64,000 nt of DNA from Naegleria gruberi (taxonomy: Eukaryota). The stretch's first letter is position 1; each line of letters opens with the position of its first letter. The notes beneath the pieces were generated by a model. It was given only the letters and a program-made list of their open reading frames with translations. It was not told where the DNA came from and searched no databases. A program made the translations under genes and the position numbers. Shown here piece after piece: positions 10,199-49,644 of this stretch. The DNA is taken from NCBI GenBank assembly GCA_000004985.1, contig GG738895.1. One strand, written 5' to 3'.

Positions 10199-10824
10199 AT
10201 CAATAATATAAATTCTTAGTATTTAATCAGCTTCACAAATTGTGATGATGATATAGAGTAACAGTGGATTACTAAGTATCAACTAGAACAAGACCTCTAA
10301 GATATAGAACTCATAAACTACTATCAAAAAAGAATAAAAGAAGATTGGAAATTTGAAATCACATTATACAAAAATCCACACCTAAGGATGATTGTCCTCG
10401 TAACGTTTCAATTATTATTTTGGACGGGAAGCCTGCCAGGAATATGGCGACAATCCCGCTACAGTCTTTGACTGTATGAACAGTGAAGGCAACGAAGACA
10501 GAATCTTGTTGGTTCAGTAAGGTTTGTTAAAGAAATTGACAGAGTTGGATCACCTTCTATTTATTGCACATTATCGAAGCTAAATTGATGGATGCAAATT
10601 TTGGTACCATATTTTCTTTATCAATTCAAAATTGAAACTTCATCTATATATTTACTTACTGATAAATCTCTTTTAAATTGAATTTTTCAAAGATTCTGAG
10701 TAATGGCAGGTTATGAATCTACTAATATCCAAACTCCTTCGAGTTCTAGCGTTTACTGGAACAGTAACATATCGAAGAAAATTCTTCCTCACAAAATAGA
10801 TTCCAAATTAAATCATAAAAAATA

Positions 10825-11256
10825 ATGAGACAAAAACTGAACCTCATCACACTTGGTGTGGAAAATCTGCAAAAATCAATCAAGTTTTATTGTGATGGTT
10901 TAGGATGGAAACCATCAGAGAAGAGCAATGATAATTTAATTCTATTTCCTTTAGGTGTTGGAATGACTTTGGCTCTATATGACAGGAAACGCTTGGCTGA
11001 GGATACAACACTTCAAGATTGTGGACATGTTGGACATTTTCATGGGTTGACACTTGCTTTTAATGCTAAATCTGAAGAAGAGGTTGATCAAGTATTGAAA
11101 CAAGTTGAAAATAGTGGTGGCAAGATTGTGAAAACTGCTCAGAAGGTGTTTTGGGGAGGTTACTCTGGTTATTTTACTGATTTAGATGGTCATGTGTTTG
11201 AAGTTGCCTTCAATCCTTTCTGGAATATGGATGAGAATGATAATCTCGTTCTTTAA
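10825..11256 (+). CDS. VOC (glyoxalase/bleomycin-resistance/dioxygenase) family protein
   Basis: 143 aa, ATG verified. Has the two-lobed VOC pattern (ITLGVENLQKSIKFYCDGLGWK...; HVGHFHG...DLDGHVFEV) and a bacterial-like compact architecture. Confidence 0.7.
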   Translation: MRQKLNLITLGVENLQKSIKFYCDGLGWKPSEKSNDNLILFPLGVGMTLALYDRKRLAEDTTLQDCGHVGHFHGLTLAFNAKSEEEVDQVLKQVENSGGKIVKTAQKVFWGGYSGYFTDLDGHVFEVAFNPFWNMDENDNLVL

Positions 11257-11302
11257 AATGATAAGTAAACAAATACGGTGTGTATATCATATATCAAAAA
11301 AT

Positions 11303-11338
11303 TGGAGTCATAGGGAATCGAACCCTAGACCTTCTGCA

Positions 11339-11369
<31 letters not shown>

Positions 11370-11375
11370 AACCCC
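11303..11375 (-). tRNA. tRNA-Ala (anticodon UGC)
   Basis: Cloverleaf hand-folded. Acceptor GGGGTTA/TGACTCC includes the G3:U70 Ala identity pair. D arm GCTC/GAGC, anticodon loop TTTGCAT, T arm TAGGG-TTCGATT-CCCTA. No encoded CCA. A TTTTTT terminator lies downstream on the minus strand. Confidence 0.9.
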
Positions 11376-11606
11376 TTCTCGTTAATTTCTTGAAAATCAT
11401 CTATTTATTGATAATCTGAGGTGTTGTTTTAATAAGAGGAAAAATTACCTGAATCAATAATCTGCCACTCCATGTTCAGACACAATTTTGATTGTGCAAA
11501 TTGCCATGCAAGAAAGAAACAGTTAAACTTTCCTTAATACTTTCTTTGCGATTATTAATCCGCGTGCATTTTTCCAATTGTAAAAAAAATTCCAAAATCA
11601 CACCAA

Positions 11607-12445
11607 ATGTCCTCCTCTCAGTCTCCACCACCATCAGATAACACCAAGAAGGGATCCACCATTTCCCGAATCTTTTCAGTCTCTGATCAATTTGCAAATT
11701 ATTACTTTTATCACCAAAGTAAAACCAATCAGATTATTCACTTTATATTTGTACCTGTGATTGCATTTTCACTGATCATGTTGATTTTCCGAGTTGATTT
11801 GCAACATGTAGGAATTATTAAGAATATTTTGGTTGATGTTTTAGGCTTGGGAGCTGAATGGTGCAATTTGGCAACTGTTGCTTTTTGTTTTCTTGCTGTA
11901 TATTATTTGATTTTGGATTTGATTGCAGGAGTAGGTTTTTATTTTTTGATCAACCTTGCTGACCTTTTGTGTTTGATTTCACTTTAATTTTCATTTAATT
12001 TCGAATTTTGAAAATGACAGGCCTTGTTGAATGCCGAATTGTTTGCCATGCTTGTTATTTCTCGTCATCTCTTCTTAAAGTATAGTGAAGATCCAACACT
12101 TTATTTTGTTATTGCTGCTGTTTGTCAAGTTGTTGGTTGGGGTACTCAATTCTATGGCCATTATTTAGGTAAGTTTTCAAGAAGAAATTCTAAACTGAAC
12201 TATTCGAATCTAATAACCAATCGGATTAATAATTACATGAAATTTATTAATCAACTCGGTTTACAGAGGGTAAAAGACCTGCACTCATTGACAATGTTTT
12301 CCAAATCTTTATTGCTCCTCTCTTTGTCTTGTTCGAATTATTATTCATGTTGGGTCTTCGTTTGGATTTGAAGGAAATTGCTGAAAAGAAGTTGAAGGAA
12401 AAGAACCTTGCTGCTACCTATTCTAAACGTAACAAACAACAATAA
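11607..12445 (+). CDS. DUF962 / Mpo1-like membrane protein (2-hydroxy fatty-acid dioxygenase family); 3 exons (11607..11930, 12021..12168, 12267..12445)
   Basis: Exon 1 (..FANYYFYHQSKTNQIIHFIFVPVIAFSLIML..) matches the yeast YGL010W/Mpo1 N-terminus (FYKFYHHNPKNVLIHSIFVP). The joined exons 2-3 give GWGTQFYGHYLEGKRPALIDNVFQIFIAPLFVLFELLFMLG, matching [26 protein letters not shown]. Introns of 90 and 98 nt (GTAGGT..ACAG; GTAAGT..TTACAG) keep the frame. Confidence 0.75.
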
Positions 12446-33611: not shown

Positions 33612-34388
33612 ATGCAACAAGATCAAGAAGATGCCACAATAGTTTTCCTGCATGATTTCGCTTTCTATAACCAAAATTCTTCCTCGGAATACTTGGTCAA
33701 TCTCTTGAAGAAAAACCTGTCAAGGCCAAGGACAAGATTTAACATGAAAAAAGTTGACAGTTTCCAAGATTTGGAATTGAGAGAAGATTTACTACGAGGA
33801 GTGTATGGATATGGATTAAAACAATTATCAGAAATTCAAACTAAATGTATCATGCCAATAATATCATCCGAACCACCACTAGATGTTGTTTGCATTTCAA
33901 GCTCGGGGACTGGAAAGAAAACTGCATTCTCAATTGCTCTTCTCCAAAGAATAGACTTGGATCATCAAGCGTACTCTAAAGGAGCACCTCAAGCTCTAGT
34001 TATTACACCTACGAGAGAAATGAGTCAAGTCATTTCTAATCACATCAAGAAATTGGCTCATTATTTGGATGTCAAAGTATTACCTTTCCATGGAGGAGTT
34101 TCAACCAAAGAAACAATCCAAGCTCTAAATGAAATTCAACATGTAGTTGTTGGAACAAACAAATTGATGGACTTAATCAGGTTTAAAGTTTTGAATTTGA
34201 AATATTTGAAACTGATAATAATTGACAGAACAGGTTGTGATTGGCTCGACATGTATGATCAACAGATTTTGAGAATTATCAATGCATCAAACAAATTCAA
34301 CCTTCAAATATGTGTCTTTGGCGATTCGAGAAATATAGGATCGATTGAACAATATCTGAAAGATCCAATTTATTGTGAACTGGAGTAG
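33612..34388 (+). CDS. eIF4A-like DEAD-box helicase N-terminal RecA domain only, degenerate motifs (module gene B)
   Basis: Q-motif-like FQDLELREDLLRGVYGYGLKQLSEIQ, interrupted P-loop SGTGKKTAF, motif Ia PTREM, motif II IIDR (in place of DEAD), and FGDSRN in the SAT position. The protein ends before helicase domain 2 (258 aa). About 45% identical to 45766..46560. Confidence 0.65.
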   Translation: MQQDQEDATIVFLHDFAFYNQNSSSEYLVNLLKKNLSRPRTRFNMKKVDSFQDLELREDLLRGVYGYGLKQLSEIQTKCIMPIISSEPPLDVVCISSSGTGKKTAFSIALLQRIDLDHQAYSKGAPQALVITPTREMSQVISNHIKKLAHYLDVKVLPFHGGVSTKETIQALNEIQHVVVGTNKLMDLIRFKVLNLKYLKLIIIDRTGCDWLDMYDQQILRIINASNKFNLQICVFGDSRNIGSIEQYLKDPIYCELE

Positions 34389-35924: not shown

Positions 35925-38900
35925 TTAAATCATTAAGAACTGAACAAAGACCACTAAGCACAATACTTCAGTAACAAAATAGCTAGCATTAGCAACAGAA
36001 ACTCTATCCGATTTTCCAGGTGAACCCCTTCTTGATGGTTCTGGAATTGGTTGGGAAGTACTACTTTTTGGTTGTGGAATAGATGGTTGTGGATTAACAG
36101 GACTCTCTCCATTACAATTCATCTCATAAGCTCCAATATCTGGTGCCTTTCCATAATAAGGCATTCCAACATTAGTTCCCTTATCAATCAATGTAATGTT
36201 GCTGTCACATCTCAATCTAAAATCATTAGCCAAATAATCTTTGAAATAATTGGTGGCATTATTGTAATTATTTTCAAAAATGGTGTTTGGTCCAATAACT
36301 GGTTTCCAAATACCTTGGAAATAGCTCCCAACAATTGCAATATAATTGTAATCAGTTTCCCAATATGGAAGAAGATCAAACTTTGCACTAGAAGTTCCAA
36401 TATTCAAGTCAACCAACTGAATAGTATTGTCCAAGAAGGCATTATTCTTCATGGAAACACTTCTTGGATAGTAACTAATCATTGCCGAATCAAAAATTGC
36501 TTGGAATACCAATTCATCAAGAATGGATCTTGTCAACCCTCTTACTTCCTCAATAATTGAAAGACCAGCATTTGAATACGAGAAAGCACCTGTACTGGAG
36601 CTTAATAACCCTCTTTTTGTAACAGCAGTCCAATATGGATAAGCAAGACCATCTTGATCCAATTGAGGAAGAACATAATCTTTGTGAACTGACATGAAAT
36701 TAGTGTCATTAATCACATTGTTAATGAAATTGATAATTTCAGCCTTATCACCACTTGTTAAATCTGAAGCTGTAGAATAAGATCTAATTCTTGATACAAG
36801 AGTTTCATTTTTGGACCAAACTAATTTGTTTCCATTTTCGGTTGGGTTTACAATACTGTTAAAAAGAGTATTCCAATTTGAAGTGGTAGTACTATCTATC
36901 AAAGCACATCTGCTATTATCTGTCTTGACAGCAAATCTCAAAAATGATTGATAGAATTGATTATTATGCAGCACAACTCTAGCAGCATGATTGACACCAA
37001 CTGGACCTCCAATAAAGACATTTCGTCTGAAGATAACTAAACCATTTTGTTCCATCCACATGTTCTGATTACCAAGTTTGTTAATCAATACGTTATCTTC
37101 GAGAACAATGTTATTGATATTGGTAAATTGAATATTATCTGGATGTTGACGATATGAAGTTTGATGCTCAACTCGATTGTTTTTGATTAGAATATTCCAA
37201 TTACTATATGCCAATTGAGTTCCAGAACCAACCCAAATACCATTATTATAATTCTTGTAAATGTACATGTTCTTAATTTGTGAATCGTTCACCATACTTG
37301 CAAAGTTTACACCATTGTTGTGATTATAACTAATCTTGCCGCCATCAACATTAATATTAGTTGCATCTCTGAAACTAAATCCATTTTCACCATTTCCATA
37401 TGAAGAGCAGTTCAATAATTGAACACTATCAGTGAATTGACCAAAAAATCCCATTGAAGCATACTTTCTAAACATCATATCTTGAACAATTAAACCATCC
37501 CCGTAAACTATTGAAATGCCATTGGTCAAGGCAGATGCTTCAAGCATGACACCACTCACCTTAGGATCCTTATCAAGTGAAACTTGAATGATATTTCCTT
37601 CTGCGGTATATTGATTAGCACGAGAGAATGATCCAATATGATTGGCAATAGCATACGAATCTTTCAAGACTATTCCCATTGGAGTAGTAAGTCCTGGCGG
37701 AATGGCATTAATTCCAATAGTATTGGTAGTGGCATTGTAATAGATAATTGTTCGAGGTTGAATGGCATTTCCAAATTGATTGTAATGGTAGAAATCAGCA
37801 CCAACCCAGAAATTATCTGAAACAGGATTTCCTGCAGCATCATATTTGAACATGTCATCAACTTCCAAATAGACTATTCCATTTAAAGTGTATGAAACAT
37901 TCTTTGGAGTGAGATAATTAGTATGATCATATTCATCATCCAAATCATATGGAAGAGGTTTCATTGCCAAACTCAATTTCTCGCCATCTGCATAAATATA
38001 CGAAGTTGAAACTTGAAGTTGACCCTTATAGATGGAAATTGGTGTGGACATGACCTTTTCCAAATTTTTAGGATCAATAATTAATGAACCATCCAAAACT
38101 GCTGAATAAGTTTTGGAATTTCCAGAGGAAGGAGTTGGTGGATTCAAAGGTTTGATAGTAATTGGATGTTTGGAATGGGTTGGGCGATCAAAATAGATTG
38201 ATTCTCTATAGATACCATTTCCAACAATTAAGGTGTCATCTGGAAGTAACATGTATTGAGCTGCATTCAAAGTTGACCAAGCAGAAGATAGACCAAGACC
38301 ATCATTAGAATCGGATCCACTCAATTGATTAACATAGTAGGTCAATCCATTTCTGTTGTGCATTTGTTTACCTTGATAAACAGTAACAGATTGAGATCTC
38401 AAAGTTGCTCCTTTGGAATTTCCTGGATTTCTGTCATAAAAACCAAATTTCAAGATTTTAAACTTTTGAATAGCACTAGAATCGGTATCTGTTACAATGA
38501 CTTGATAATCATTAGCACTGGAACCCAATTTAGCCAACTGAATTGAAATTCCATTTGAAGACCATTCAGCATAAAGTTTGTAAGTGGAATAAAGCAATGG
38601 GACATGAATTAATGCTAATTTGGAGCTAGAATATAAGCGAACAGATTGACCATTCATAATTCTGGTAATGGACATGGTTGGATACAAACTAATCTTGTAA
38701 TAATTGTTTTGGTCAACCAGGAGAACAAAACCAAGATCATAGCTGGTAGATAGAAAACCAGTTTGCAAATTGCTTGAAAATGTAACACCATCAGTAGTGT
38801 CATACGGAGTGTCATAGGTGACAATCGAATCATTTTGATAAATTTGCAACAATTGACTAGCAATACCAACATTTCCTTTTTGGGTATTCCAACCAGCCAT

Positions 38901-39326
38901 GCCATTGCTAAAATTACTCTGCATCAACACCTTCAAACTATTTGGAGTAGGCAATGCAATAGATTGAATAGTAATCATGTGAGTAATGGTTATCTTTTTC
39001 CCATTCACATCATTATACGAAACGTTTCTCATCACCACAGTTTCGCCAATCGATTGTGTACTATAAACCAGAGCTGAATTATAATTATATAAACCAGTTT
39101 TCAATGGAGAACCATCTGCCATTGAATAAGCGATCTGAACTGAAGTTGAAGAATAGGAATCATTGAAATAGGTAATTCTTGGATTTAAAATTACTGAACC
39201 GAATTGATGCATGATAACTTTCTGGATGGGAGTAACGTAGAGTACATCCTGAACAGTTTGTGCATGTGTAACGGTATGAAAAACTGTCAGGAGGAGCAAA
39301 ATGACAAGTGGCAGTTTTGCTTTCAT
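35925..39326 (-). CDS. Secreted right-handed parallel beta-helix protein (pectate-lyase-superfamily-like), Ser/Pro-rich stalk and GPI-anchor-like C-terminus
   Basis: 1133-aa continuous ORF, ATG verified. Signal peptide MKAKLPLVILLLLTVFHTVTHAQ. The central region has PbH1-like repeats (..NNGVNFASMVNDSQIKN.., ..NRVEHQTSYRQHPDNIQFTNINNIVLEDNVLIN.., ..HAARVVLHNNQF..). The C-terminus is NPQPSIPQPKSSTSQPIPEPS.. followed by a hydrophobic tail. Confidence 0.65.
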   Translation of the reverse strand: MKAKLPLVILLLLTVFHTVTHAQTVQDVLYVTPIQKVIMHQFGSVILNPRITYFNDSYSSTSVQIAYSMADGSPLKTGLYNYNSALVYSTQSIGETVVMRNVSYNDVNGKKITITHMITIQSIALPTPNSLKVLMQSNFSNGMAGWNTQKGNVGIASQLLQIYQNDSIVTYDTPYDTTDGVTFSSNLQTGFLSTSYDLGFVLLVDQNNYYKISLYPTMSITRIMNGQSVRLYSSSKLALIHVPLLYSTYKLYAEWSSNGISIQLAKLGSSANDYQVIVTDTDSSAIQKFKILKFGFYDRNPGNSKGATLRSQSVTVYQGKQMHNRNGLTYYVNQLSGSDSNDGLGLSSAWSTLNAAQYMLLPDDTLIVGNGIYRESIYFDRPTHSKHPITIKPLNPPTPSSGNSKTYSAVLDGSLIIDPKNLEKVMSTPISIYKGQLQVSTSYIYADGEKLSLAMKPLPYDLDDEYDHTNYLTPKNVSYTLNGIVYLEVDDMFKYDAAGNPVSDNFWVGADFYHYNQFGNAIQPRTIIYYNATTNTIGINAIPPGLTTPMGIVLKDSYAIANHIGSFSRANQYTAEGNIIQVSLDKDPKVSGVMLEASALTNGISIVYGDGLIVQDMMFRKYASMGFFGQFTDSVQLLNCSSYGNGENGFSFRDATNINVDGGKISYNHNNGVNFASMVNDSQIKNMYIYKNYNNGIWVGSGTQLAYSNWNILIKNNRVEHQTSYRQHPDNIQFTNINNIVLEDNVLINKLGNQNMWMEQNGLVIFRRNVFIGGPVGVNHAARVVLHNNQFYQSFLRFAVKTDNSRCALIDSTTTSNWNTLFNSIVNPTENGNKLVWSKNETLVSRIRSYSTASDLTSGDKAEIINFINNVINDTNFMSVHKDYVLPQLDQDGLAYPYWTAVTKRGLLSSSTGAFSYSNAGLSIIEEVRGLTRSILDELVFQAIFDSAMISYYPRSVSMKNNAFLDNTIQLVDLNIGTSSAKFDLLPYWETDYNYIAIVGSYFQGIWKPVIGPNTIFENNYNNATNYFKDYLANDFRLRCDSNITLIDKGTNVGMPYYGKAPDIGAYEMNCNGESPVNPQPSIPQPKSSTSQPIPEPSRRGSPGKSDRVSVANASYFVTEVLCLVVFVQFLMI

Positions 39327-39818
39327 TGTGTTTGTTTTTTTTTACTGTGGTGATTTCAATGATAGTTATCATAATTGACTATATTGATTGATTTGCGTAG
39401 TGAGTTTCGTAATTTGTGAACTAAAAGAGTCAACTCCTAGTCAACTGGCGTGTGAAAAGCTTAGAAATTTAAATCTCTCTAAAATTTTATTATTCTGCTG
39501 TCATTGCAATTGACTCTTTGATAAAGCAACAAAATTCAGATCTGGGCAATGGTTTTCCAGGAAAGGAACGGTGTGGCTGGGTTCGCAAAAATTATATCTC
39601 CATTCCATTGCGCCTCAATTACTTTTTTCCGAAAAAAGCGAAACACTGAACGCCACAATTTATACAAACAATTTCTTGAACATTCATTGGTCTCTTCATT
39701 GAATATTGTGAGAACAGTAATCTTAAAAACCTGTAAATGATTGAGGGAAGTAAGTGAATTGGCTTGAAAATGCAGAGATATGTCTATGTGAAAACTATTC
39801 TTTTAAGATAGATGTGAA

Positions 39819-39898
39819 GCAGGGGTTCCCGAGTGGTCAAAGGGGTAGACTCAAGTTCTACTGCGCAAGCTTCGTGGGTTCAAATCCCACCTTCTGCA
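39819..39898 (+). tRNA. tRNA-Leu (anticodon CAA), class II, no intron
   Basis: Hand fold: acceptor GCAGGGG/CTTCTGC (2 G-U pairs), 3-bp D stem CCC/GGG with a GAGTGGTCAAA loop, anticodon stem GTAGA/TCTAC, loop CTCAAGT, long variable arm, T arm GTGGG-TTCAAAT-CCCAC, T-run downstream. Confidence 0.85.
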
Positions 39899-40369
39899 AC
39901 TTTTGTTTCTTTTTCTTTAGTGATTATGACTTGAGCATAATATTGATATTAAATATTTGACATTGTATGTAGAATATAATATGAAAAGATGGTCGCTTTA
40001 TTTCAAGTATATAAAAAGTTAATCAGCAACGATTACAAGCACCTGAATCATCCTCCTTCCTAACAATCCTTGGAAACAGATAAGATGAGCTTAGAGATGA
40101 ACTCAATTTCCAAGTTCTTTAAATGGATGAGATTGAATCACTTATAACACAAATTTTATTAATTGTTGTTTCTTCACAAGTGTAACCTTTTGTTTGTTGA
40201 AACCTTTCTATTACAAATAGTTACTTTTGTCATTTAAGCAATGTAACATTTCAATTATTTCGAATAAATTAGTTTATTGTTATCTTTGACTTTCAACTCT
40301 TTACTTTTGAATAGCCAATCACTCGTATCTAAACATTCTCTTCTCAAAACTATATAGTACAAAACTCGT

Positions 40370-40855
40370 TTAAATCAAAAAGTCAAACTTTTGAAATACT
40401 GGATCAAAATTCGTTGAAAATGAAATACAACCATTAAAGTTTTCCTGTTTCGTACTCTTCACAACAGAGCAACACAAAATTTGGAAAGGTTTAGGTGAGC
40501 TCATATTTGAATCGTACAAGTTAGGAATGGAAGAAGTATCAATTTCAACAATTAGATTACTCGATTCTGGAATACAATGAAAACTCATCTTTTCCCACTG
40601 TGGAGTAAAGCTTGGAAATATGCTGTGTGTTCTACGTGATGAATCAATCACCATAATAATCATGTGTGTCTGTTGTGAGCTATTATTCTCAAAGAAGAGT
40701 CTCAGTTTTTCACCCCTCTTTAACAGATTACTCCTCTCACTTGATTCTCTCGACATTTTACAAGTGTGCATACATTGATAAGCTAGTGATTGTTCCATCG
40801 CCTCAGGTGAATATTGTCGGCTCAATAATTGATGTACTGTAACTTTAGTTGCCAT
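40370..40855 (-). CDS. Hypothetical 161-aa protein
   Basis: ATG-initiated intact ORF. No recognised motifs. Confidence 0.35.
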   Translation of the reverse strand: MATKVTVHQLLSRQYSPEAMEQSLAYQCMHTCKMSRESSERSNLLKRGEKLRLFFENNSSQQTHMIIMVIDSSRRTHSIFPSFTPQWEKMSFHCIPESSNLIVEIDTSSIPNLYDSNMSSPKPFQILCCSVVKSTKQENFNGCISFSTNFDPVFQKFDFLI

Positions 40856-41735
40856 TCTTGTTGATGTTTTTATTGGTTGTGTGTTTTGTTCCTACTTCCC
40901 AATGAGATGTTGTTCTTTCTTTTTTTCCTAGATGTAAGTTGCGTCTTAAATGATTACGATGTGTGGTGGTTGCCAAACAACAATTAACATCAACAGTGAT
41001 GAAACTTGTACCAAGTTCATTGCTAATGGAAGTTCCTTGACTGTGCGAGAAGGAGTTCAGCATCATTTCAATGATGGGATGAAAATAATTTGGAGTGCTA
41101 CTTGCCGAAGTGATGTGACATGGATAGATGGTTCTGCCTTTGATGATGAACAACTCAATGTCGTTTAGTGTGTTTCAATCGTATTATGAAATGTTGTTTG
41201 GTTCATCATGCACACTGCAATCGATAAGGATTCACTGAATTGAAGAAAGGGTGAACCTTGATGAATTCAATGATAATCTAGATGAACATTTTCTGATGAA
41301 TTTTAAAATGATTATGAGATATTGACCTGTGTAACTTTACAGTACTTTATGTAACTTGACAAAGTTCATTAAATTTTTCAAATAAAACCTATATAATAAG
41401 AATGACAAGATTGATTTGGAAATGAATTTCTTCATTATTCCAAGTCATCTTATTCTTCATTAGTTCTTAATTGTTGATTCAAAGAAGTGAACTTGGTGAA
41501 ATAGAAAAATATTTTCAACAAATTTGTGAAATAAATTACAATTTCAATTTATCTTAGCTCTAATCTAGTTGGATTGTTGTTTGTATACTGTTAATAATAA
41601 TTATTTGAATAAATCTAAATATTTGTACAGAGGTATGTGGTGTGTTATGAATGATCATCATTAATATGGTCCAATTTGTTGTTGTATCATCCTCGTAATC
41701 CTTTCGGAAGAAGTGATCATCCACAATTTGTCCAA

Positions 41736-42140
41736 TTATTTCTTGTCATTCTTGAATCTGTGGTTACAACCCGTACAAATCAACCACAAATTCATACCAC
41801 CTTGATTTTCTTTAGTAATACCAAAACCTGTTTGTAGATAGACAACTTCACTGTGGCCACATTTTGGACAAGCACCAATACCAACAGTACCTCTTGGAAG
41901 AGTTGGATCTTTTGTTAATTCGTTCCAATCAATATTACTCCATTGAATATCCTTGGAAGCTTTAATATCGTTTTTATAAACAGTGTATTCATCTGTTGGA
42001 ACTCTTTCACTAAAATCGCAATGTCTACATTTATATTCGAGTGTTTTGAGTCTTCGGTTTTCTCTTGGATACAACATATTGTTGCATTCTGAGCAAAACT
42101 TCATACCCAATGATCTATCGTCTTCAAGATTGTCCTCCAT
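41736..42140 (-). CDS. RNA polymerase II subunit RPB9-like (TFIIS-type zinc-ribbon)
   Basis: N-terminal ribbon FCSECNNMLYPREN..YKCRHCDF (compare RPB9 FCQECNNMLYPKED..YACRNCDY). Linker DPTLPR. C-terminal ribbon CPKCGH..CTGCNHRF. Confidence 0.75.
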   Translation of the reverse strand: MEDNLEDDRSLGMKFCSECNNMLYPRENRRLKTLEYKCRHCDFSERVPTDEYTVYKNDIKASKDIQWSNIDWNELTKDPTLPRGTVGIGACPKCGHSEVVYLQTGFGITKENQGGMNLWLICTGCNHRFKNDKK

Positions 42141-42541
42141 TTTTTTTTAATTAAAATTATTTTATTGTTGTGATAAAAATACACCTTGTTAATTAAACTG
42201 TCTTGTGAAAATAGTGAAGTAAAGGTTCAAGTTGTTGTGAAGGTGATGATCTACGAAACACAGAAGGTATTAATCATTCCGCTTGTTTGTTATTGATGGA
42301 GTCATGTTCTTATTGTTATGTGTTTGGTCCAAACATGAGATTCTTTCAGGCTGGCATTTTTTAGCTTGGGATTTGCCTGTAAAATATTCTTATTGTAAAA
42401 GAACCCTAGACTGGGTTGGCCAAAATTTGCGAAAGTTTGTCGAAAAAAAAATACAAAAAGTAAGTTAATGCCACACCTTCGTACTTATCGTTCTCCTTTC
42501 TACTTGTTTTAAAATGATAAAATTTATTGTTACACAACTAG

Positions 42542-42922
42542 ATGTCTCTTGTTTGGGAAATTACTAAGAACAACAGCTCTTTCTTGAAGAGAACCAAGCT
42601 CTATGATGGTGCTGCATTCAACACTGCTCCAACCAACCCATTGAACATTAACTCTGAAAAGTACACCAAGACTCAAGCTGTTTCCGTTGATGTTACTCCA
42701 AAGGGTAATTTGGTTATCAAGAAGTCCACTTTGGACTGTTCCGTCAGAAAGCCAAAGGAATTCGTCAAGAAGACCAAGGTCACCAAGGGACAAAAGTCAG
42801 TCACCAACTTTGCTAGAAACATTGTTGAAGCCACCGAATCTGAAGATTTCAGAGGTGACTTGAAGGCTGTTTTGGTTGCTCGTGCTGCCAAGTTGTTGAA
42901 GAACAGAAAGGCCAGAAAGTAA
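42542..42922 (+). CDS. 60S ribosomal protein L28e
   Basis: 126 aa. MSLVWEITKNNSSFLKRTKLYDG.. parallels the L28e M..L.W.VVRNCSSFL.KR. It has the basic C-terminus and is arranged divergently with the RPB9 gene. Confidence 0.75.
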   Translation: MSLVWEITKNNSSFLKRTKLYDGAAFNTAPTNPLNINSEKYTKTQAVSVDVTPKGNLVIKKSTLDCSVRKPKEFVKKTKVTKGQKSVTNFARNIVEATESEDFRGDLKAVLVARAAKLLKNRKARK

Positions 42923-43252
42923 ATTTGCTTTTTCCAATAAAAAAACATATAAATTATAACTGTCCAACATTCAACGATGATTCAGCAGAATATTTAAGCT
43001 TATCCATTCACTTTCTATTTCGGTAATCACACGTGTTAATCAAAATAAAAAATTGATTCTCCTTCCCAGGATTTTATTCAAATTGATTGTTAATAAATAA
43101 TTAATTATTTTCAAATTGATTGATTGAAATTGTTTTTCTATTTAAATCTGCAATCCATCATAGATACATTGTTCTTTTAATAAACCATTCAAAAAAAAAT
43201 AGTCCTTCTACTTTTGATCATCCTCTACATTCGTCATAATCCTAATAGTGCC

Positions 43253-45235
43253 ATGTCTGAATACATTGCTTCACTTGTTCAAAAGGGTTATGATCAAGGA
43301 AAAGCCCTCCTTGAAAATTATGGTGTAATCCAAAAACCTGTTCAACCAAATACTCATGATGCCATTCGTGACTTTATCACCAATCATCCATACATCACAA
43401 CAAGTATTGTTACCTCAACATTGTATAGCACTGCCAAGTTTGCGATCGGCCAATTAAAGAAGAGAGTTGCTGCTAATACCATCTTGGAAATTGATTTGGA
43501 AGATGTTGAATTTACTCCTCAACCTGTTGCACCATCATTGTCCCAAATTCTTTCTCCTGGTAAATTCAAGATGAATTATCTTACATTTATTCAAACTTTG
43601 AAAGCTGCCAATCAAAATCCAAAAATTTCTGGATTGATTTTATACTTACCAGGATCAAGTCATAATCCATTCGAAGGTTTAGCTTTGGCTCATATTTATG
43701 AAATGAGAAAGGCTTTATTCGAATTCAAAGGTCAAAAGATTGCTCATGCTGACATGTTCAATTCATCTATTTCTTATTATTTTGCTACTGCTTGTGATAA
43801 GATTTTCATGACTGATAATGGTCTTCTTATTTTGAATGGATTCCAATTACGTAATTTCTTCTTTAAACAATTGTTGGATAAGATTGAGGTCGAACCTTTT
43901 GTTGTAAAGAGAGCTGAATATAAATCAGCAATGAATCCATTCACCGAAGAAAAGTATACTGAACATCATCGTGAACAAGTGGAAACTCTTGCTAAGGAAT
44001 TATTCGATACCTTTGTCTCTGATATTGCTCAAACAAGAGAAAAGAATGCGGAAAGTGTTAGAGAATGGTTTGATATTGGAATTTTTGGACCTAAGGATTC
44101 CGTTGAACACAAAGTTATTGATGGTGTAAAATATAGAGATGAGTTGCTTGGTGTTATGGCACAATCCTTGTCAGTTGATTCTAAAAAGCTCAATTTGTTA
44201 TATCTTCAAAAGTATATTGAACAAAAGCTTGATGGTAGTCCTCTTGATAAAATCAATCCAAAGAAGAAGGATGACAATTTGGTTGCTGTCATTTATGCCA
44301 GTGGAGCTATTGTAAGAGGTAGACCATCCAACCCTAGAGATACCAACATGAATAGCAATGTCATTGTTGATGCAATCTATAAGGCCAGAAAGGATAAGGA
44401 AGTTAAGGTCATTCTCATCAGAGTTGACTCTCCTGGTGGTGAAGTCTCTGCTTCTGAAGTTATTAGAAGAGAAATTGAACTTGCTAGAACTGAAGATAAA
44501 AAGAAGGTAGTTATCTCTATGGGTGGTTTGGCTGCTAGTGGTGGTTATTGGATCAGTTTACCAGGTGATAAGATTGTTTGCAATCCTTTCACAATTACAG
44601 GTTCAATTGGTGTTATCATGGGTAAATTGTATTTGGGAGACTTTTTCTCAAAGAAACTTGGTGTTACCAATGATAGTGTATCAACAAGCAAGAATGCTGG
44701 TCTTTTATCACAATTTGAACGTGCTAATGATCAACAAATGGAAATATTTAATAATCTTGCTGATGATTTTTATGATTCATTCTTGGAAAAGGTTAGTGAA
44801 AGAAGAAATATTTCAAAGGATGATCTCAAGAATAATATTGCAAAGGGTAAAGTCTATCTTGGAAACTCTGCTAAGGCACTTAATTTGGTTGATAGTGTTG
44901 GCGATTTTTATGATGCCCTCCAAGTTGCTAAGGAACTTGCTGGTATGAAGAATGAACCTCACATTGTTGTCTTCCATCCAAAGAAGAAATCTGTAATAGA
45001 GTCCCTTCTCAACACTCAATCTCCATCTAATAGTAAGGAAAGAGCTCTCAAATCCAATGTTTCTATTTTCGAACCATTTACATCATTGTATCAATCAATT
45101 TGTGGATTCATGAAGCTCACTAATATTTTCATCAAGCACCAAAATATTATTGAAAAGTACGCAAAGGTTATTGAAAAGACCCAAGCAGTCAATGGACAAG
45201 TAAGATCAGAACTTGATATCAATGTGGAATTGTAA
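43253..45235 (+). CDS. Signal peptide peptidase SppA (protease IV, S49 family), two-domain 67K type
   Basis: Contains the duplicated ClpP/crotonase-like S49 domains. The second has IRVDSPGGEVSASEVIRREI and SMGGLAASGGYWISLPGDKIVCNPFTITGSIGV (catalytic Ser/Lys region). About 660 aa, as in bacterial or plastid SppA. The first ATG is 43253 (track start is TTG). Confidence 0.8.
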   Translation: MSEYIASLVQKGYDQGKALLENYGVIQKPVQPNTHDAIRDFITNHPYITTSIVTSTLYSTAKFAIGQLKKRVAANTILEIDLEDVEFTPQPVAPSLSQILSPGKFKMNYLTFIQTLKAANQNPKISGLILYLPGSSHNPFEGLALAHIYEMRKALFEFKGQKIAHADMFNSSISYYFATACDKIFMTDNGLLILNGFQLRNFFFKQLLDKIEVEPFVVKRAEYKSAMNPFTEEKYTEHHREQVETLAKELFDTFVSDIAQTREKNAESVREWFDIGIFGPKDSVEHKVIDGVKYRDELLGVMAQSLSVDSKKLNLLYLQKYIEQKLDGSPLDKINPKKKDDNLVAVIYASGAIVRGRPSNPRDTNMNSNVIVDAIYKARKDKEVKVILIRVDSPGGEVSASEVIRREIELARTEDKKKVVISMGGLAASGGYWISLPGDKIVCNPFTITGSIGVIMGKLYLGDFFSKKLGVTNDSVSTSKNAGLLSQFERANDQQMEIFNNLADDFYDSFLEKVSERRNISKDDLKNNIAKGKVYLGNSAKALNLVDSVGDFYDALQVAKELAGMKNEPHIVVFHPKKKSVIESLLNTQSPSNSKERALKSNVSIFEPFTSLYQSICGFMKLTNIFIKHQNIIEKYAKVIEKTQAVNGQVRSELDINVEL

Positions 45236-45359
45236 ATAAATTTGCCAAAGAATACATAAGAAAAAAAGATGTTGTCAACACTCATTCTTAACTTAGCTGT
45301 TCATTGGTAAAGGAGGTCAACTAGAAATATAATAAGTATTGTTTCATAATGAATATGAA

Positions 45360-45430
45360 GCGTCGATGGTTTAGTGGTAGAATACGGCGTTGCCATCGCC
45401 GTGACCCGGGTTCAATTCCCGGTCGACGCA
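45360..45430 (+). tRNA. tRNA-Gly (anticodon GCC)
   Basis: Perfect acceptor GCGTCGA/TCGACGC. Anticodon stem CGGCG/CGCCG with loop TTGCCAT. T arm CCGGG-TTCAATT-CCCGG. 71 nt. Confidence 0.9.
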
Positions 45431-45765
45431 TCAGAAGATATCAATTTTTACTTTTTTCCCTTTGGATTCAAAATTTAAATTTTTTGCCGCGTGGGCTACC
45501 CATGTCTAGATAGTATATTCTCAAATATCACAGTTTCATCTATTATATTGGTCTAGATAATGCCCACAGTTTTGACCTCATTTTTTCCCTGAGGGTCCAA
45601 TTCTACTCAGACTAAATATAATCTAATATTCAAATAGACAATAGAGTTTAAGCAAAATTAACTTAGATCAACCCACACTTTACCATAAAAAATTGTAAAC
45701 AAAATTGGTAAATTAAAATTAATATTCTCTGGTGTTTGTTTTTGACCAAGTTGAAGATAAAGTTG

Positions 45766-46560
45766 TTACAAATCTTCTAATAATATTGGATCTCTCAAAT
45801 GTTTTTGAATGAACAATTTGGTATCTCGATTTCTTGCACATCCAAAAATACAAATCTGAAGATTTAACTTTTTGGCAATTTTCACAATTTCCTCAACATG
45901 AGCTTGAAAACCATAATTTTGTACATGACTCATCTCCTCAACAATTAACATTTTCAAATATTTCACATTCAGAATATTGCTCTCTATCAAATCTAACAAT
46001 TTCACTGGCGTTCCCACAACTACATGTTGAATTTCTTGCAGAGCTAGCTCTGCAGACCGCATTTGACCTCCATATATCCCAAATACTTTGACACTCATAA
46101 ATTTCGCAAAGGATGCTATAATATGAGAGAGACTTATCGCCATTTCCCTGGTCGGTACAATCACCAATGCTTGAGGGGCACCTTTCGAATATAAATCATG
46201 ATTCAGATCAATTCTTTCAAGAAGGGCAAGTGAAAACCCAACTGTTTTACCAGTTCCAATTTTAGATGTGGACACAACATCAACTGGTGGATAGGATGAA
46301 ATAATTGGCATGATCAACTTTTTTTGCAATTCTGTCATTTCTTTTTTACCATCACTATAAAAACCAGAAAGTAAATTCGCGCGTAAATTTAAATCTTCAA
46401 AAGTTTCAATCTTTTTCATGTTGAATTTTGGTCGTGGAATTGTGATTTGTTTTTTGAAAAGTTTGATCAAGTGTGAAAATTCCGAATTTATATTCGAATT
46501 GCTGTGTATGTCTGTTAGAAGGAGGCGTGTAACACTTTCGTATGTTTCTGCTTGGTTCAT
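45766..46560 (-). CDS. eIF4A-like DEAD-box N-terminal RecA domain only, degenerate (module gene B')
   Basis: FEDLNLRANLLSGFYSDG..ELQ (Q-motif-like), intact P-loop GTGKT, PTREM, motif II IVEE (in place of DEAD), FGCARN. Ends before domain 2. Paralog of 33612..34388. Confidence 0.65.
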   Translation of the reverse strand: MNQAETYESVTRLLLTDIHSNSNINSEFSHLIKLFKKQITIPRPKFNMKKIETFEDLNLRANLLSGFYSDGKKEMTELQKKLIMPIISSYPPVDVVSTSKIGTGKTVGFSLALLERIDLNHDLYSKGAPQALVIVPTREMAISLSHIIASFAKFMSVKVFGIYGGQMRSAELALQEIQHVVVGTPVKLLDLIESNILNVKYLKMLIVEEMSHVQNYGFQAHVEEIVKIAKKLNLQICIFGCARNRDTKLFIQKHLRDPILLEDL

Positions 46561-46596
46561 TTTTTTTTGAAAGATTTTGTTGAGGAAGAATCATTT

Positions 46597-47133
46597 ATGG
46601 AAATTTCTGCAGAATTAGTGCCAGGTATTTCACACAGTATCAAACTAAAGCTTGAGTATGCTAGCAATGCAGAAGATTTGAAAGATCTTTGGAGTTTCGT
46701 TAACAAGTTGATGAAACGAATTGATCAACTCGAGAAGAAACAACCACAACTTAAGAGAGTAAGAATTCCATTATTGGACAGGATTCAATTGAATAATTCA
46801 ACACCAACTTATCAAATTCCAATTCAAGTTCCCAAAAATTCTGTTTCTGTCATTTTGAGATGTAAAAGTTTTATTGGAAACTCTTCAGGACATTCGTATT
46901 TGACATTCGAAGCTCAACAACAAGCAAATTCCAATGGTATTCTCACCGTTGACAAATATCATTTCGATTGGTATTACAACAATACTGTGGAAGAATTTAT
47001 AATGCCTTGGAATGGTCAATCTGAGAATCAAACATTGGAAATTAGAGTTAAATCATCTCTCTCTGATGGGAATTACAATGGAGAAAATCAAAATTATTTT
47101 ACCATTTCCATTGAAGGTTTTATGGAATTTTAA
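46597..47133 (+). CDS. Hypothetical 178-aa protein
   Basis: The first ATG at 46597 is only about 36 bp from the divergently oriented ATG of the B' gene. No recognised family. Confidence 0.35.
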   Translation: MEISAELVPGISHSIKLKLEYASNAEDLKDLWSFVNKLMKRIDQLEKKQPQLKRVRIPLLDRIQLNNSTPTYQIPIQVPKNSVSVILRCKSFIGNSSGHSYLTFEAQQQANSNGILTVDKYHFDWYYNNTVEEFIMPWNGQSENQTLEIRVKSSLSDGNYNGENQNYFTISIEGFMEF

Positions 47134-47460
47134 ATTAATAATGAAATTGAAAAAAGAAAAAGAGTGTTTCGAATGGAGAGAAATTGTATCTTTTTTCCAA
47201 CATTTAAATGAAATAGTCTCTTTATAATAATTGTTTGTAGATGTTGAATTGATTATTGTTACTGAGATTCCATTTGTGATGAAGAAAGATGTGCAGTTAC
47301 CTGTTAAAATACAATTGGAAACTAATTGAACTAAACGTGTTGAATAAGTCTTTCTTTTAATTATTCCATCAATCATCACAATGAAGAACATCCAATGACT
47401 CGTTCCACATCACATGGAAAGTGATCTATTAGATCTCGTTATTCGAAACGACAAAAAAAA

Positions 47461-49644
47461 ATGAAATCAACATCTCTATTGATATCTTTGGTTCTTTTTA
47501 TTTCCATCTGCATTTCCACACATGTCAATTGTGCATGGAACTTGCCACCACTCGGTTCTCCAAGAATACTCTTTGCAGATTCGTCCTACTTGACGAAACT
47601 AAAGTCTGACATGGCAAAGCCAACCAATTACGCCACTTCTTTCAAAAACTTTGTTAATAGTGGAATTTCTGGTGGCGGATCCGTCTATCTATTCGAAGCA
47701 TGGCACTCAGCTCTATTATTCATGGTCACAGGACAAGTTTCCTATTGTAACTATGCAGTTCAAAATATAGATTCCATTGTAGCTCAAGAAGAATCCATCA
47801 TTGCCAGTGGGAACATTCCATCCATTGCAGGAGATAGTTATCTTGATGTTGGATATGGTTTGCATAATATAATGACTGTCTATGATTGGTGTCGAGCACA
47901 AACAAGTCAATCTCAAAGAAATCGATGGACAAATTATGCCAATCAAGCAGTTTCTAATATTTGGAATTGCTCAACAGCGACATGGGGTGGTAAAGATGCT
48001 GCATGGTCATGTTGGTCGGTGGATAATCCAGGAAACAATTATTATTACTCCTTTTTGAGAGCAACCATGATGGTTGGGTTAGCCACATACGGAGAGAATG
48101 CAAGTGCTGATATGTGGTTGAGACAATTTAGAAATGTCAAGATTGGAAATCAATTAATTCCATATTTTAATGGAGAGCTCAAGACAGGTGGCAGTTTGGA
48201 AGGAACTGGGTATGGTATTTCACATAAGGAATTGTTTAATTTGTATATTTGGTGGCAATTGTCAACTGGTGAAAATATTGCTGACCTGACTTCACACACT
48301 TACAATTCGTTACAATGGATTTTGCATCAAATGGTTCCACAATTGGATGCATTGGCAAATATTGGCGATCAAGCACGTGATTCCTCTGCATCTTTCTATG
48401 ATTATCATCGTCATTACATTATTGCTCTTTGCTATTTATATCCAAAATCCAAATTAGCAAAATCAGCTAAAATTCTATTATCCAAATCGAGTGTTCCTCA
48501 AATGACAAGCGGTTTCAATACTTATATAGATTACATTTATGATATCAGTTCTATTGAAACAGTTCCACTCAATTCAACCTATATTACAACTTCATTCAGG
48601 GGAGATTCAACTGGAACTCTTGCCTTACGTTCAAGTTGGGATTCTGATGCAGTTTATGCTAATTTAGTTTGTGGACCACTTGTAGAATCTCATGCACATC
48701 AAGATCAGGGAAGTTTTATTCTATATCACAAGGGTTGGTTGGCATATGATCAGAATTTCAATAGTCATTCTGGAATTCAACAAATGAATCACTATCATAA
48801 TTTGGTTAGAATTGTTAGTGACAATGAGATTATTCTTCAATCTGGAGGATCTCCTTGTAATATGAGTGCACTTTCTGATAATTCTGTTTATTCCTATGCA
48901 CTTTCACTTGTTACTCCTCTATATGATAGTAATAATTACAATTCGAAAGGTTTAGTTACCAAAGTCGAAAGAGAATTTGTATTTATCAAACCAAGTACAT
49001 TTGTTGTTTTTGATAGAGTGGCAACAAAGACTAATTCCAAAGCTAAAAGAATACTTTCGCTTAATTTTATGGATAAACCAAGCTATTCCAATGGAAATTT
49101 GGTTTTTAATTCAAAGAGTTCCATTACTGTTAAAACTCTTTCTCCAACCTCAAATTTAAACGTTTCCATTATTGATTGGAAAACTGAAGATTCTGATAAC
49201 AATGCTGGATATAGAGTTGACTATTTGGATACTTCATCATTAGATTCCACTAACTTTTTACAAGTAATTTCAATCAACTCTTCTGTTGCCTCATCCATTA
49301 GGGATGATGTTAGTGGAAAAATAGGAGCAACAATTAGTTTGAATGATGGACGAAAGGTAACTGTTCGATTCAATACTGCCAGTACTGGTGGATCAATCGT
49401 GGTTATTTCCAATAAGCAAACAACATTGGTGAATGAGGATCTCACAACCAGTAAGCAAGCTCTTGGTGTGGGAGAGGTAATAGTTCCACTTTCATCACCT
49501 AAACCTGTTCCAATTTCTTCTGTGCAACCAGGTCAAAAATCAAGCAAAGCATTTACATCAACAAGAGTTAATTCTAGTCGGCCATCTCAAATGAGTAGTT
49601 TGTTCTTCATTATTGTAATAATTGGTTTCATTTTAATAAATTAA
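47461..49644 (+). CDS. Secreted heparinase II/III-like / alginate-lyase-like polysaccharide lyase with GPI-anchor-like C-terminus
   Basis: Signal peptide MKSTSLLISLVLFISICISTHVNCA. The N-terminal half is Trp-rich and (alpha/alpha)-toroid-like. The C-terminal beta-domain contains ESHAHQDQGSFILYHKGWLAYDQN, matching the heparinase II/III HxHxDxxSF..G....D.G signature. The Ser-rich stalk ends in a hydrophobic tail (SSLFFIIVIIGFILIN). Confidence 0.65.
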   Translation: MKSTSLLISLVLFISICISTHVNCAWNLPPLGSPRILFADSSYLTKLKSDMAKPTNYATSFKNFVNSGISGGGSVYLFEAWHSALLFMVTGQVSYCNYAVQNIDSIVAQEESIIASGNIPSIAGDSYLDVGYGLHNIMTVYDWCRAQTSQSQRNRWTNYANQAVSNIWNCSTATWGGKDAAWSCWSVDNPGNNYYYSFLRATMMVGLATYGENASADMWLRQFRNVKIGNQLIPYFNGELKTGGSLEGTGYGISHKELFNLYIWWQLSTGENIADLTSHTYNSLQWILHQMVPQLDALANIGDQARDSSASFYDYHRHYIIALCYLYPKSKLAKSAKILLSKSSVPQMTSGFNTYIDYIYDISSIETVPLNSTYITTSFRGDSTGTLALRSSWDSDAVYANLVCGPLVESHAHQDQGSFILYHKGWLAYDQNFNSHSGIQQMNHYHNLVRIVSDNEIILQSGGSPCNMSALSDNSVYSYALSLVTPLYDSNNYNSKGLVTKVEREFVFIKPSTFVVFDRVATKTNSKAKRILSLNFMDKPSYSNGNLVFNSKSSITVKTLSPTSNLNVSIIDWKTEDSDNNAGYRVDYLDTSSLDSTNFLQVISINSSVASSIRDDVSGKIGATISLNDGRKVTVRFNTASTGGSIVVISNKQTTLVNEDLTTSKQALGVGEVIVPLSSPKPVPISSVQPGQKSSKAFTSTRVNSSRPSQMSSLFFIIVIIGFILIN

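Follow-up and report, generated by a model that had tools for sequence, protein, structure and literature searches.

Two unlinked genes of probable bacterial ancestry encode carbohydrate-active-enzyme-like, putatively surface-tethered proteins in Naegleria gruberi

Analysis of a 64,000-nucleotide stretch of contig GG738895.1 (assembly GCA_000004985.1; here called the window, to which all positions refer) revealed two intact, unlinked genes of the amoeba Naegleria gruberi that are probably of bacterial ancestry and whose products appear to be carbohydrate-active-enzyme-like ectodomains re-tooled for the eukaryotic secretory pathway. The products are here named BH1133 (a beta-helix protein of 1133 amino acids [aa]) and HEP727 (a heparinase-like protein of 727 aa). 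Both open reading frames (ORFs) had been described in an earlier note on this DNA, and their positions, strands and lengths proved correct:

47461-49644, plus strand: HEP727 coding sequence (NAEGRDRAFT_72148 / XP_002672754.1 / UniProt D2VT24), 727 aa, single exon; ORF with a 100% match to an N. gruberi predicted protein
35925-39326, minus strand: BH1133 coding sequence, 1133 aa, single exon; ORF whose best database matches are paralogs at 46 to 47% identity

At the base composition of the window, a stop is expected about every 14 codons, and the chance of staying open is about 10^-38 for the BH1133 ORF and about 10^-24 for the HEP727 ORF. The window itself is nuclear DNA of N. gruberi, as seen from the 100% identity of HEP727 to the N. 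gruberi protein and from its eukaryotic neighbours, and its GC content is 31 to 38% throughout.

Horizontal transfer of both genes from bacteria, which the earlier note had proposed, is well supported by the sequence comparisons, strongly for HEP727 and reasonably for the BH1133 family. In both families the nearest relatives are bacterial, the distribution among eukaryotes is restricted, and the genes have the composition of their host and lie among host genes. GC at third codon positions (GC3) is 0.27 in BH1133 and 0.25 in HEP727, compared with 0.23 to 0.31 in six neighbouring genes, and the overall GC of the two genes is 0.35, far from the 0.51 to 0.73 of the bacterial homolog genes. Any transfer must therefore be old enough for full amelioration. 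The host-like composition also speaks against a bacterial contamination or chimeric assembly, in which case the genes would not be truly amoebal. The high similarity of HEP727 to bacterial proteins would fit this explanation, but eukaryotic genes lie on both sides of the candidates, with RPL28e and an RPB9-like gene between them, and the eukaryote-type signal peptides, stalks and tails of both proteins are absent in bacterial relatives. Furthermore, an ortholog of HEP727 with spliceosomal introns is present in the independent N. lovaniensis assembly, and paralogs are encoded by further scaffolds of N. gruberi as well as by Willaertia. We regard the probability of contamination as practically negligible.

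HEP727 and its bacterial relatives

A word-indexed search with HEP727 yielded 1350 matches, among them more than 1,000 bacterial proteins with 45 to 53% identity across about 88% of HEP727; the best 120 are 43 to 58% identical over 71 to 90% of the query. Besides the entries of N. gruberi and of N. lovaniensis (the latter with 58% identity), all named sequences among these 120 are bacterial (Ideonella, Sphingomonas, Aquabacterium and a deltaproteobacterial metagenome-assembled genome [MAG]), and no protein of N. fowleri or Willaertia is among them. A scan of GTDB with one genome per species revealed 302 relatives from at least five phyla, mostly from Burkholderiales (Rhizobacter, Ideonella, Aquabacterium, Piscinibacter, Rhodoferax, and Acidovorax) and Sphingomonadales, with others in Myxococcota, Anaerolineales, Acidobacteriota, and Solirubrobacteraceae. 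The hosts are bacteria of soil, freshwater and sludge, a habitat they have in common with Naegleria. A literature search found no paper that mentions the BH1133 or HEP727 genes or characterizes the bacterial family of HEP727.

In neighbor-joining trees with midpoint rooting, one of them with 77 named bacterial sequences, HEP727 and its N. lovaniensis ortholog grouped in 100 of 100 bootstrap replicates, as did this pair together with P0003, a groundwater metagenome sequence. The clade of Naegleria and P0003 falls inside the proteobacterial part of the tree, with a divergent Myxococcota clade split off (100/100). P0003, the closest relative outside Naegleria, is probably bacterial, although the shortness of its contig (2 kb, GC 0.56) leaves some doubt. 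The reading frame is open to the contig end, where it passes into an Ala-Pro linker like that of Sphingomonas homologs. The metagenomic sequence nearest to P0003 comes from a contig of GC 0.70 with two family copies.

Some features of this analysis weigh against a transfer from bacteria. The trees were built by neighbor joining and rooted at the midpoint, the Sphingomonadales are sister to the Naegleria clade with only 45% support, too low to single out a donor, and eukaryotic labels were inspected in the best 120 of the 1350 matches. Vertical inheritance of one or both families with loss almost everywhere else, or a transfer from a eukaryote to bacteria, could draw on the same features, since unrooted trees allow a root on the Naegleria or heterolobosean branch and the screen for eukaryotic labels covered the top matches only. 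However, just two Naegleria proteins among the best 120 carry a eukaryotic label, as opposed to the 302 bacterial genomic relatives, and the corrected distance of 0.78 between N. gruberi HEP727 and the closest bacterial sequence stays below the maximum of 1.02 reached between two bacteria. Together with the data on the BH1133 family given below, we consider such an origin very improbable.

The N. lovaniensis ortholog (PYSW02000003.1, about 9534-11953 of locus L004) lies in a gene neighbourhood that differs from the one in N. gruberi. It contains two canonical GT-AG introns, both absent in N. gruberi, a sign that the gene has been resident in a eukaryote. The earlier note had listed long, intronless ORFs among its evidence; both genes are indeed single-exon in the window, but given the introns of the ortholog this state is not diagnostic. 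The 5' third of the ortholog shows a TGA at the conserved Trp156 codon, frame changes and a deletion of about 25 aa, and the annotated protein (P0005), which begins with an internal Met, has no signal peptide. The ortholog is thus either a decaying gene or pseudogene, or it is mis-assembled. Given this disrupted 5' third, the HEP727 gene may be dispensable, which counts against our reading of it.

In our reconstruction, HEP727 derives from a large bacterial family, and its gene was already present in the Naegleria lineage when N. gruberi and N. lovaniensis diverged. Its composition was then fully ameliorated, a eukaryotic signal peptide took the place of the bacterial one just where the domain begins, and a disordered Ser/Pro stalk and hydrophobic end were gained.

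Several bacterial genomes harbor two or three diverged copies of the family, some within about 10 kb (L017/L042 on the same MAG contig, L087, and L015/L030/L038 in an Aquabacterium MAG), which suggests paralogs with different specificities. A tblastn search against PLSDB gave no plasmid copy. Full-length relatives with 37 to 39% identity were found on three IMG/VR contigs classed as viral (L083, L084, and L085; about 62 to 63 kb). No clear phage hallmark genes were detected within 3 kb of these relatives, and a phage or giant-virus vector is without support. The gene next to the relative in L085 codes for a Beta_helix protein of 581 aa that weakly matches a tailspike.

Fold and putative active site of HEP727

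The AlphaFold2 (AF2) model of HEP727, built from a 53-member family alignment, reached a predicted local distance difference test (pLDDT) of 84.5 and a predicted template modelling score of 0.83. It shows a helical toroid (residues 40 to 360), a beta-sandwich (378 to 661) and disordered ends (1 to 22 and 672 to 727) and hence the two-domain architecture of heparinase II/III-like proteins, with an N-terminal (alpha/alpha) toroid and a C-terminal antiparallel beta-sandwich. Searches with the model using Foldseek retrieved PL15 (E 1e-23) and heparinase II (HepII; E 4e-21). The following parts were delimited, all on the plus strand:

47461-47535: predicted signal peptide, about aa 1-25, MKSTSLLISLVLFISICISTHVNCA; hydrophobic N-terminal window, pLDDT below 50 at 1-22, bacterial similarity starting right after it at PLGSPRIL
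47536-48555: alpha/alpha-toroid domain, about aa 26-365; AF2 helices 41-359, invariant columns and fold matches; holds NNYYY (192-196) and EGTGYG (Tyr251)
48556-49464: beta-sandwich domain, about aa 366-668; AF2 strands 378-661, HMMER profile match to heparinase II (E 2e-18)
48691-48705: H411-A-H413-Q-D415 motif; aligned to HepII H406 and H408, with D430 on D425; invariant in 53 family members
49465-49599: Ser/Pro-rich disordered stalk, aa 669-713; 44% Ser+Pro+Thr, pLDDT 31-36; bacterial proteins end at about aa 668
49600-49641: C-terminal hydrophobic tail LFFIIVIIGFILIN, aa 714-727; Kyte-Doolittle values of 15-residue windows up to 3.0, nothing downstream; resembles a glycosylphosphatidylinositol (GPI) signal or membrane anchor

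At the sequence level, HEP727 on its own matched heparinase II in the PDB with an E-value of 3e-5, and the profile of the 53 members matched heparinase II (2e-18), the PL35 GAGase II (5e-10), the PL12 heparinase III (3e-6) and the PL15 enzyme Atu3025 (3.6e-4). The thresholds of established families were not reached. HEP727 scored 19.5 bits against the 24-bit gathering cut-off of Pfam Hepar_II_III_C (PF07940), which 47 of the 53 members match below threshold only (best E 2.8e-5), and it scored 24 versus 600 bits for the NCBIfam equivalog HepB (PL21) and 13.4 versus 700 bits for HepC (PL12). The HEP727 family is therefore best described as an uncharacterized sister family of the PL21/PL15/PL12/PL35 uronate lyases, like them in its predicted fold and outside each of them by sequence thresholds. 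The model places it within the fold superfamily of heparinase II/III, PL15/PL17 alginate lyases and dermatan-sulfate epimerases, in line with the fold assigned in the earlier note.

Heparinase II of Pedobacter heparinus (HepB, PL21; PDB 2FUQ/3E7J) is the best PDB match of the family profile, and its H-x-H-x-D motif and downstream Asp are aligned with those of HEP727. Identity is only 15 to 17%, the N-terminal domain cannot be aligned by sequence, and the Naegleria protein has a eukaryotic signal peptide, stalk and tail in addition. The PL15 exo-type alginate lyase Atu3025 (PDB 3A0O) and exoHep (6LJA) are 14 to 15% identical to HEP727, with a profile E-value of only 3.6e-4 for Atu3025. Human dermatan-sulfate epimerase 1 (PDB 6HZN) shares 10% identity and has no phylogenetic link to HEP727, whose sequence relatives are bacterial and not animal.

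The HxHxDxxSF core pointed out in the earlier note corresponds to SHAHQDQGSF at residues 410 to 419 and was aligned by HMMER to NHQHQDAGAF of heparinase II. In this alignment, H411, H413, and D430 lie on HepII H406, H408, and D425, of which the first is the catalytic His of the sandwich domain in heparinase II and the other two are zinc ligands; all three positions are invariant or nearly so in the family. Of 138 positions conserved to 97% or more among 118 family members outside Naegleria, HEP727 also retains 127 (92%). Family-invariant candidates in the toroid are Tyr251 (EGTGYG) and N193/Y194 (in NNYYY), which lie 57 residues apart. Heparinase II uses His202 and Tyr257 in its toroid, and the His-to-Tyr spacing is 54 to 56 residues in HepII, Alg17c, and Atu3025. 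The spacing in HEP727 resembles this and would put a Tyr where these three enzymes have a His.

A number of observations weigh against a lyase. With the N-domain profile of HEP727 alone, only chance matches to the PDB were obtained, and the candidate toroid Tyr/His cannot be mapped by sequence. The family has NNYYY where PL5/PL17-type lyases have an NNH motif, which may mean a different chemistry. Furthermore, an Arg that is nearly invariant in the 118 family members outside Naegleria is replaced by Leu in both Naegleria copies (codon 246, window positions 48196-48198), five residues before Tyr251, and this exchange could alter substrate binding or activity. The human dermatan-sulfate epimerase matches HEP727 structurally as well as lyases do. 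As for the substrate, the recurrent neighbours in 78 bacterial loci of the family are CapK-like adenylate-forming enzymes (12), polysaccharide deacetylases (11, two ORF clusters summed), GT1 glycosyltransferases (6) and acyltransferase_3 proteins (5). These hint at exopolysaccharide biosynthesis, in a minority of the loci only.

HEP727 could be a uronate C5-epimerase, or a silent glycan-binding receptor acting, for example, in recognition of prey exopolysaccharide or in adhesion. The deviating NNYYY motif, the R246L exchange next to Tyr251 and the biosynthetic contexts of bacterial members, in which epimerases also occur, are in favor of such a role. We nevertheless think it unlikely, as the similarity at the sequence level is to lyases (HepII, PL35, PL12, and PL15) and as the retained His/metal site and 92% of the family-conserved positions argue against a silent binding protein. 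An epimerase would probably find no uronan of the amoeba's own to epimerize; to our knowledge, none is known in the amoeba itself. Of the two chemistries, a lyase is thus the most likely one, though unproven.

The BH1133 family

No protein identical or more than 50% identical to BH1133 was found in collections of 5.8 billion (word-indexed search) and 1.84 billion entries (exhaustive search of representatives). The best match in the former was a paralog with 46% identity, and nothing exceeded 47% in the latter. As no close entry was found in these collections, the gene seems to have been missed by public Naegleria annotation. In the exhaustive search, 261 relatives were obtained, of which 28 had E-values below 1e-30. 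Named ones are four further N. gruberi proteins (P0121, P0122, P0126, and P0131+P0148), which are annotated and encoded elsewhere in the genome on other scaffolds, four proteins of Willaertia magna, and one protein of a Phycisphaerae MAG. The latter is annotated as right-handed parallel beta-helix repeat-containing and is about 31% identical to BH1133 over residues 323 to 1069; overall, the nearest bacterial relatives show about 30% identity over about 750 residues. The remaining close matches are metagenomic, mostly with bacterial-type composition or modules, and family members contain Por_Secre_tail, Big and Flg_new domains. P0131 and P0148 (NAEGRDRAFT_69936 / 69935) are adjacent gene models that seem to represent the N-terminal and C-terminal portions of one fifth paralog, divided in the annotation.

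In a neighbor-joining tree of the core (residues about 321 to 1075), the nine heterolobosean sequences were monophyletic in 200 of 200 bootstraps, with bacterial groups as sisters and the bacterial and metagenomic sequences outside. The simplest reading of this tree is one old acquisition before the divergence of Naegleria and Willaertia, followed by duplication in each lineage. A lone recent transfer of the BH1133 gene does not agree with at least five N. gruberi paralogs (BH1133 included) and at least four in Willaertia, which point to an old acquisition and subsequent expansion. What the Naegleria-Willaertia ancestor would have taken from bacteria is a protein with signal peptide, LamG-like domain and right-handed beta-helix, which was then duplicated. 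The presence of the family in two heterolobosean genera, its many paralogs and the identity of only about 30% to bacteria would also suit the vertical inheritance considered above. Against it stand the diversity of the bacterial relatives, which carry bacterial secretion and adhesion modules, and the finding that no relative from another eukaryotic supergroup is among the close matches (E < 1e-30) checked for origin.

Alignment and the low-confidence AF2 model suggest that BH1133 consists of a signal peptide, a small beta domain, a jelly-roll/LamG-like domain and a DUF1565-type N-cap (YYVNQLSGSDSNDG...), followed by a beta-helix with an inserted beta-domain, a helical insertion, a C-terminal cap ending in APDIGAYE, a stalk and a tail. 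Residue numbers of the model and alignment are those of the protein offset by -1 (without Met1). The parts, all on the minus strand, are:

39261-39326: predicted signal peptide, about aa 1-22, MKAKLPLVILLLLTVFHTVTHA; hydrophobic N-terminal windows
38367-38939: beta-sandwich (jelly-roll/LamG-like) domain, about aa 130-320; AF2 strands 180-298, pLDDT 55-80; two relatives match Laminin_G_3, and bacterial relatives align from about aa 140
36927-38354: right-handed beta-helix core with inserted beta-domain, about aa 325-800; Pfam Beta_helix at 602-720, AF2 strand ladder with pLDDT 60-89, matches to GH120, GH141 and AlgE
36117-36248: conserved C-terminal cap with ...GKAPDIGAYE motif, about aa 1027-1070; the Gly of DIGAYE is the sole invariant column, with nearly invariant neighbours; weak match to the PelN C-terminus
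35982-36116: Pro/Ser-rich stalk, aa 1071-1115; 44% Ser+Pro+Thr, pLDDT 22-39
35928-35981: C-terminal hydrophobic tail YFVTEVLCLVVFVQFLMI, aa 1116-1133; hydrophobic windows 1114-1119; similar tails in P0121, P0122 and P0148

The beta-helix nature of BH1133, already recognized in the earlier note, was seen in the family more clearly than in the protein itself. BH1133 alone scored 21.1 bits with Pfam Beta_helix (gathering score 25.9), and 21 of 25 relatives match this model (best E 2e-30). Together with the strand ladder at 328 to 800 in the AF2 model and beta-helix enzymes among the Foldseek matches, these profile matches of the relatives indicate a right-handed parallel beta-helix. Counting against a detailed reading of the fold, the model is poor (mean pLDDT 55; core 330 to 790 at 60 to 89) and its fold matches are weak (template modelling scores of 0.25 to 0.43). 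The word-indexed search for the family alignment found generic beta-helix proteins only, and the alignment used by AF2 was therefore shallow and the model poor.

In profile searches, the family matched the GH120 enzyme XylC best (2e-20, N-cap), followed by the mannuronan epimerases AlgE4 and AlgE6 (about 1e-11) and GH136 lacto-N-biosidases (about 1e-10). Next in order were a rhamnogalacturonan lyase (5e-7), a PL31 alginate lyase (1e-6, N-cap only), GH87, phage tailspikes and chondroitinase B (5e-3); PL6 gave an E-value of 0.06. Foldseek placed the GH141 enzyme BT_1002 first (4e-14), then GH120 (2e-9), GH110B, a Klebsiella K1 capsule lyase, phage depolymerases and GH136. Two relatives match GH141_M, and the PelN (PL9) equivalog scored 32.9 versus 740 bits on BH1133, over the terminal caps only. 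Family-level similarity to the beta-helix lyases PL1/3/6/9/31 was not found, and hydrolases and epimerases score better.

As judged from these profile and model matches, BH1133 is probably a beta-helix glycan-processing or glycan-binding protein. A lyase has no more support than a hydrolase or an epimerase, and it is hydrolases that match best. The earlier note had called both proteins lyase-like. This holds for HEP727 as its most likely, unproven chemistry but not for BH1133, whose best matches are GH120, GH141, GH136, GH110 and mannuronan C5-epimerases. GH141 (BT_1002, PDB 5MQP) and GH120 (XylC, PDB 3VST) have a beta-helix with an inserted beta-domain, as BH1133 appears to have; the identity is 10 to 13%, and the likeness is at the level of fold and N-cap and on a low-confidence model. 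The LamG-like domain, helical insertion, stalk and tail are additional in BH1133.

The two genes, which the earlier note had treated together, do not form one island. They are 8 kb apart, with the housekeeping genes for the RPB9-like protein and RPL28e between them, and no bacterial locus links the two families: a hidden Markov model of the BH1133 core matched no neighbour in any of the 78 bacterial HEP727-family loci. A co-transfer or functional pairing was rejected accordingly. A beta-helix gene near the Ideonella homolog of HEP727 was considered as a counterpart of BH1133 and rejected as well, as it has no specific similarity to BH1133.

Surface tethering, possible function and genomic surroundings

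In BH1133 and HEP727 alike, 15-residue windows with Kyte-Doolittle values above 2.0 occur only at the extreme N- and C-termini, in agreement with the signal peptides and C-terminal hydrophobic tails proposed in the earlier note. Such features at both ends are combined in 3 of the 37 ORFs of at least 150 aa in the window. The Ser/Pro stalks were recovered, too: the 45 residues before the tail are 44% Ser+Pro+Thr in both proteins, compared with 20 to 22% in the rest of each, and are modelled as disordered (pLDDT below 40 in HEP727, 22 to 39 in BH1133). The similarity of HEP727 to bacterial homologs starts right after the predicted signal peptide, between NCA and WNLPPLGSPRIL, and stops at about residue 668; stalk and hydrophobic tail are absent from these homologs. 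HEP727 ends in LFFIIVIIGFILIN and BH1133 in YFVTEVLCLVVFVQFLMI, with nothing after either. Equivalent tails are present in the N. gruberi paralogs P0121, P0122, and P0148 and in the N. lovaniensis HEP727 ortholog.

With these predicted features, surface tethering of both proteins is well supported. Small omega residues, a short polar spacer and a terminal hydrophobic tail make up the classical anatomy of a GPI signal. By eye, small residues precede the tail in HEP727 (N-S-S, the spacer RPSQMSS and a 14-residue tail) and in BH1133 (N-A-S, YFVTE and a 13-residue tail). On this reading by eye, the proteins may plausibly carry a GPI anchor and not a plain transmembrane one. Ordinary type I transmembrane anchors without a cytoplasmic tail, and not GPI-attachment signals, are the possible but somewhat doubtful alternative. 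The tail lengths of 13 to 18 residues and the predicted helix over 1116 to 1131 in BH1133 would be compatible with them. Yet the chains end within or right after the hydrophobic stretch, without positively charged cytosolic residues, and the small residues stand at a spacing suitable for GPI attachment. Evidence for GPI-anchored proteins is mentioned in a pangenome paper (PMC9928731).

Thus tethered, through a GPI anchor or directly through its tail, the ectodomain of HEP727 would sit on the outer side of either the plasma membrane or the phagosomal membrane. It might cleave a uronic-acid-containing bacterial exopolysaccharide by beta-elimination, with Tyr251 of the toroid and His411 of the sandwich acting beside a His413/Asp430/His446 metal site, and such cleavage could help the bacterivore to break up a capsule or floc matrix. 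The most likely role of BH1133 is not that of a lyase but that of a GH141/GH120-like protein tethered to the surface, which would depolymerize or bind glycans. A more far-reaching proposal, which we put forward tentatively and do not expect to hold in full, is that HEP727, along with over 1,000 relatives in bacteria, represents an undescribed polysaccharide-lyase family with a variant active site (NNY for NNH plus the His/metal site). Its bacterial members would trim their own exopolysaccharide, and the Naegleria copy would be GPI-displayed to dissolve the floc or biofilm matrix of Burkholderiales and Sphingomonadales prey, the source of the gene.

Transfers of bacterial carbohydrate-active enzymes into phagotrophic protists are well documented, for example, in Acanthamoeba (PMC4053784) and Diplonema (PMC10161547). 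As in Naegleria, these concern single bacterial genes among vertical ones, with ameliorated composition and sometimes acquired introns. The text-searched Naegleria literature contained no mention of heparinase, and none of lyase or beta-helix/CAZy terms in the part of it checked for each; the combination with GPI-like surface tethering is not described there. As a transfer of bacterial genes into a bacteria-eating protist, the case is a solid but fairly ordinary example. If confirmed, it would be a concrete instance of a free-living amoeba using bacterial glycan-processing enzymes as surface-tethered tools and would bear on how bacterivores get through capsules and biofilms. The HEP727 family is represented in more than 300 GTDB species genomes and reaches the threshold of no Pfam or NCBIfam model, and it may qualify as a new family of lyases or epimerases in CAZy. 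The apparent absence of BH1133 from public Naegleria protein sets makes its gene a small annotation gain.

The further neighbours in the window are eukaryotic and include an F-box plus Ras GTPase protein, a protein kinase, leucine-rich repeat proteins, an EPL1-domain protein, an SNF-family transporter, an S49 peptidase and two paralogs that consist of a DEAD domain only. The latter (33612-34388, plus strand, and 45766-46560, minus strand) have about 260 aa each and are 49% identical. They comprise the first RecA-like DEAD domain alone, with motifs that look degenerate (e.g., SSSGTGKKT, and IIDR/IVEE instead of DEAD), and one lies close to each candidate gene, in mirrored orientation. The S49 peptidase gene (43214-45235, plus strand) encodes a 673-aa Peptidase_S49 protein resembling the signal peptide peptidase SppA (Pfam E 6e-65). 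Proteases of this type are mainly bacterial and plastid, and the gene might be another transfer candidate. Finally, a 191-aa ORF at 4224-4799 (plus strand), without a Pfam match, has a signal-peptide-like N terminus and a hydrophobic C-terminal tail and may encode another small surface protein.

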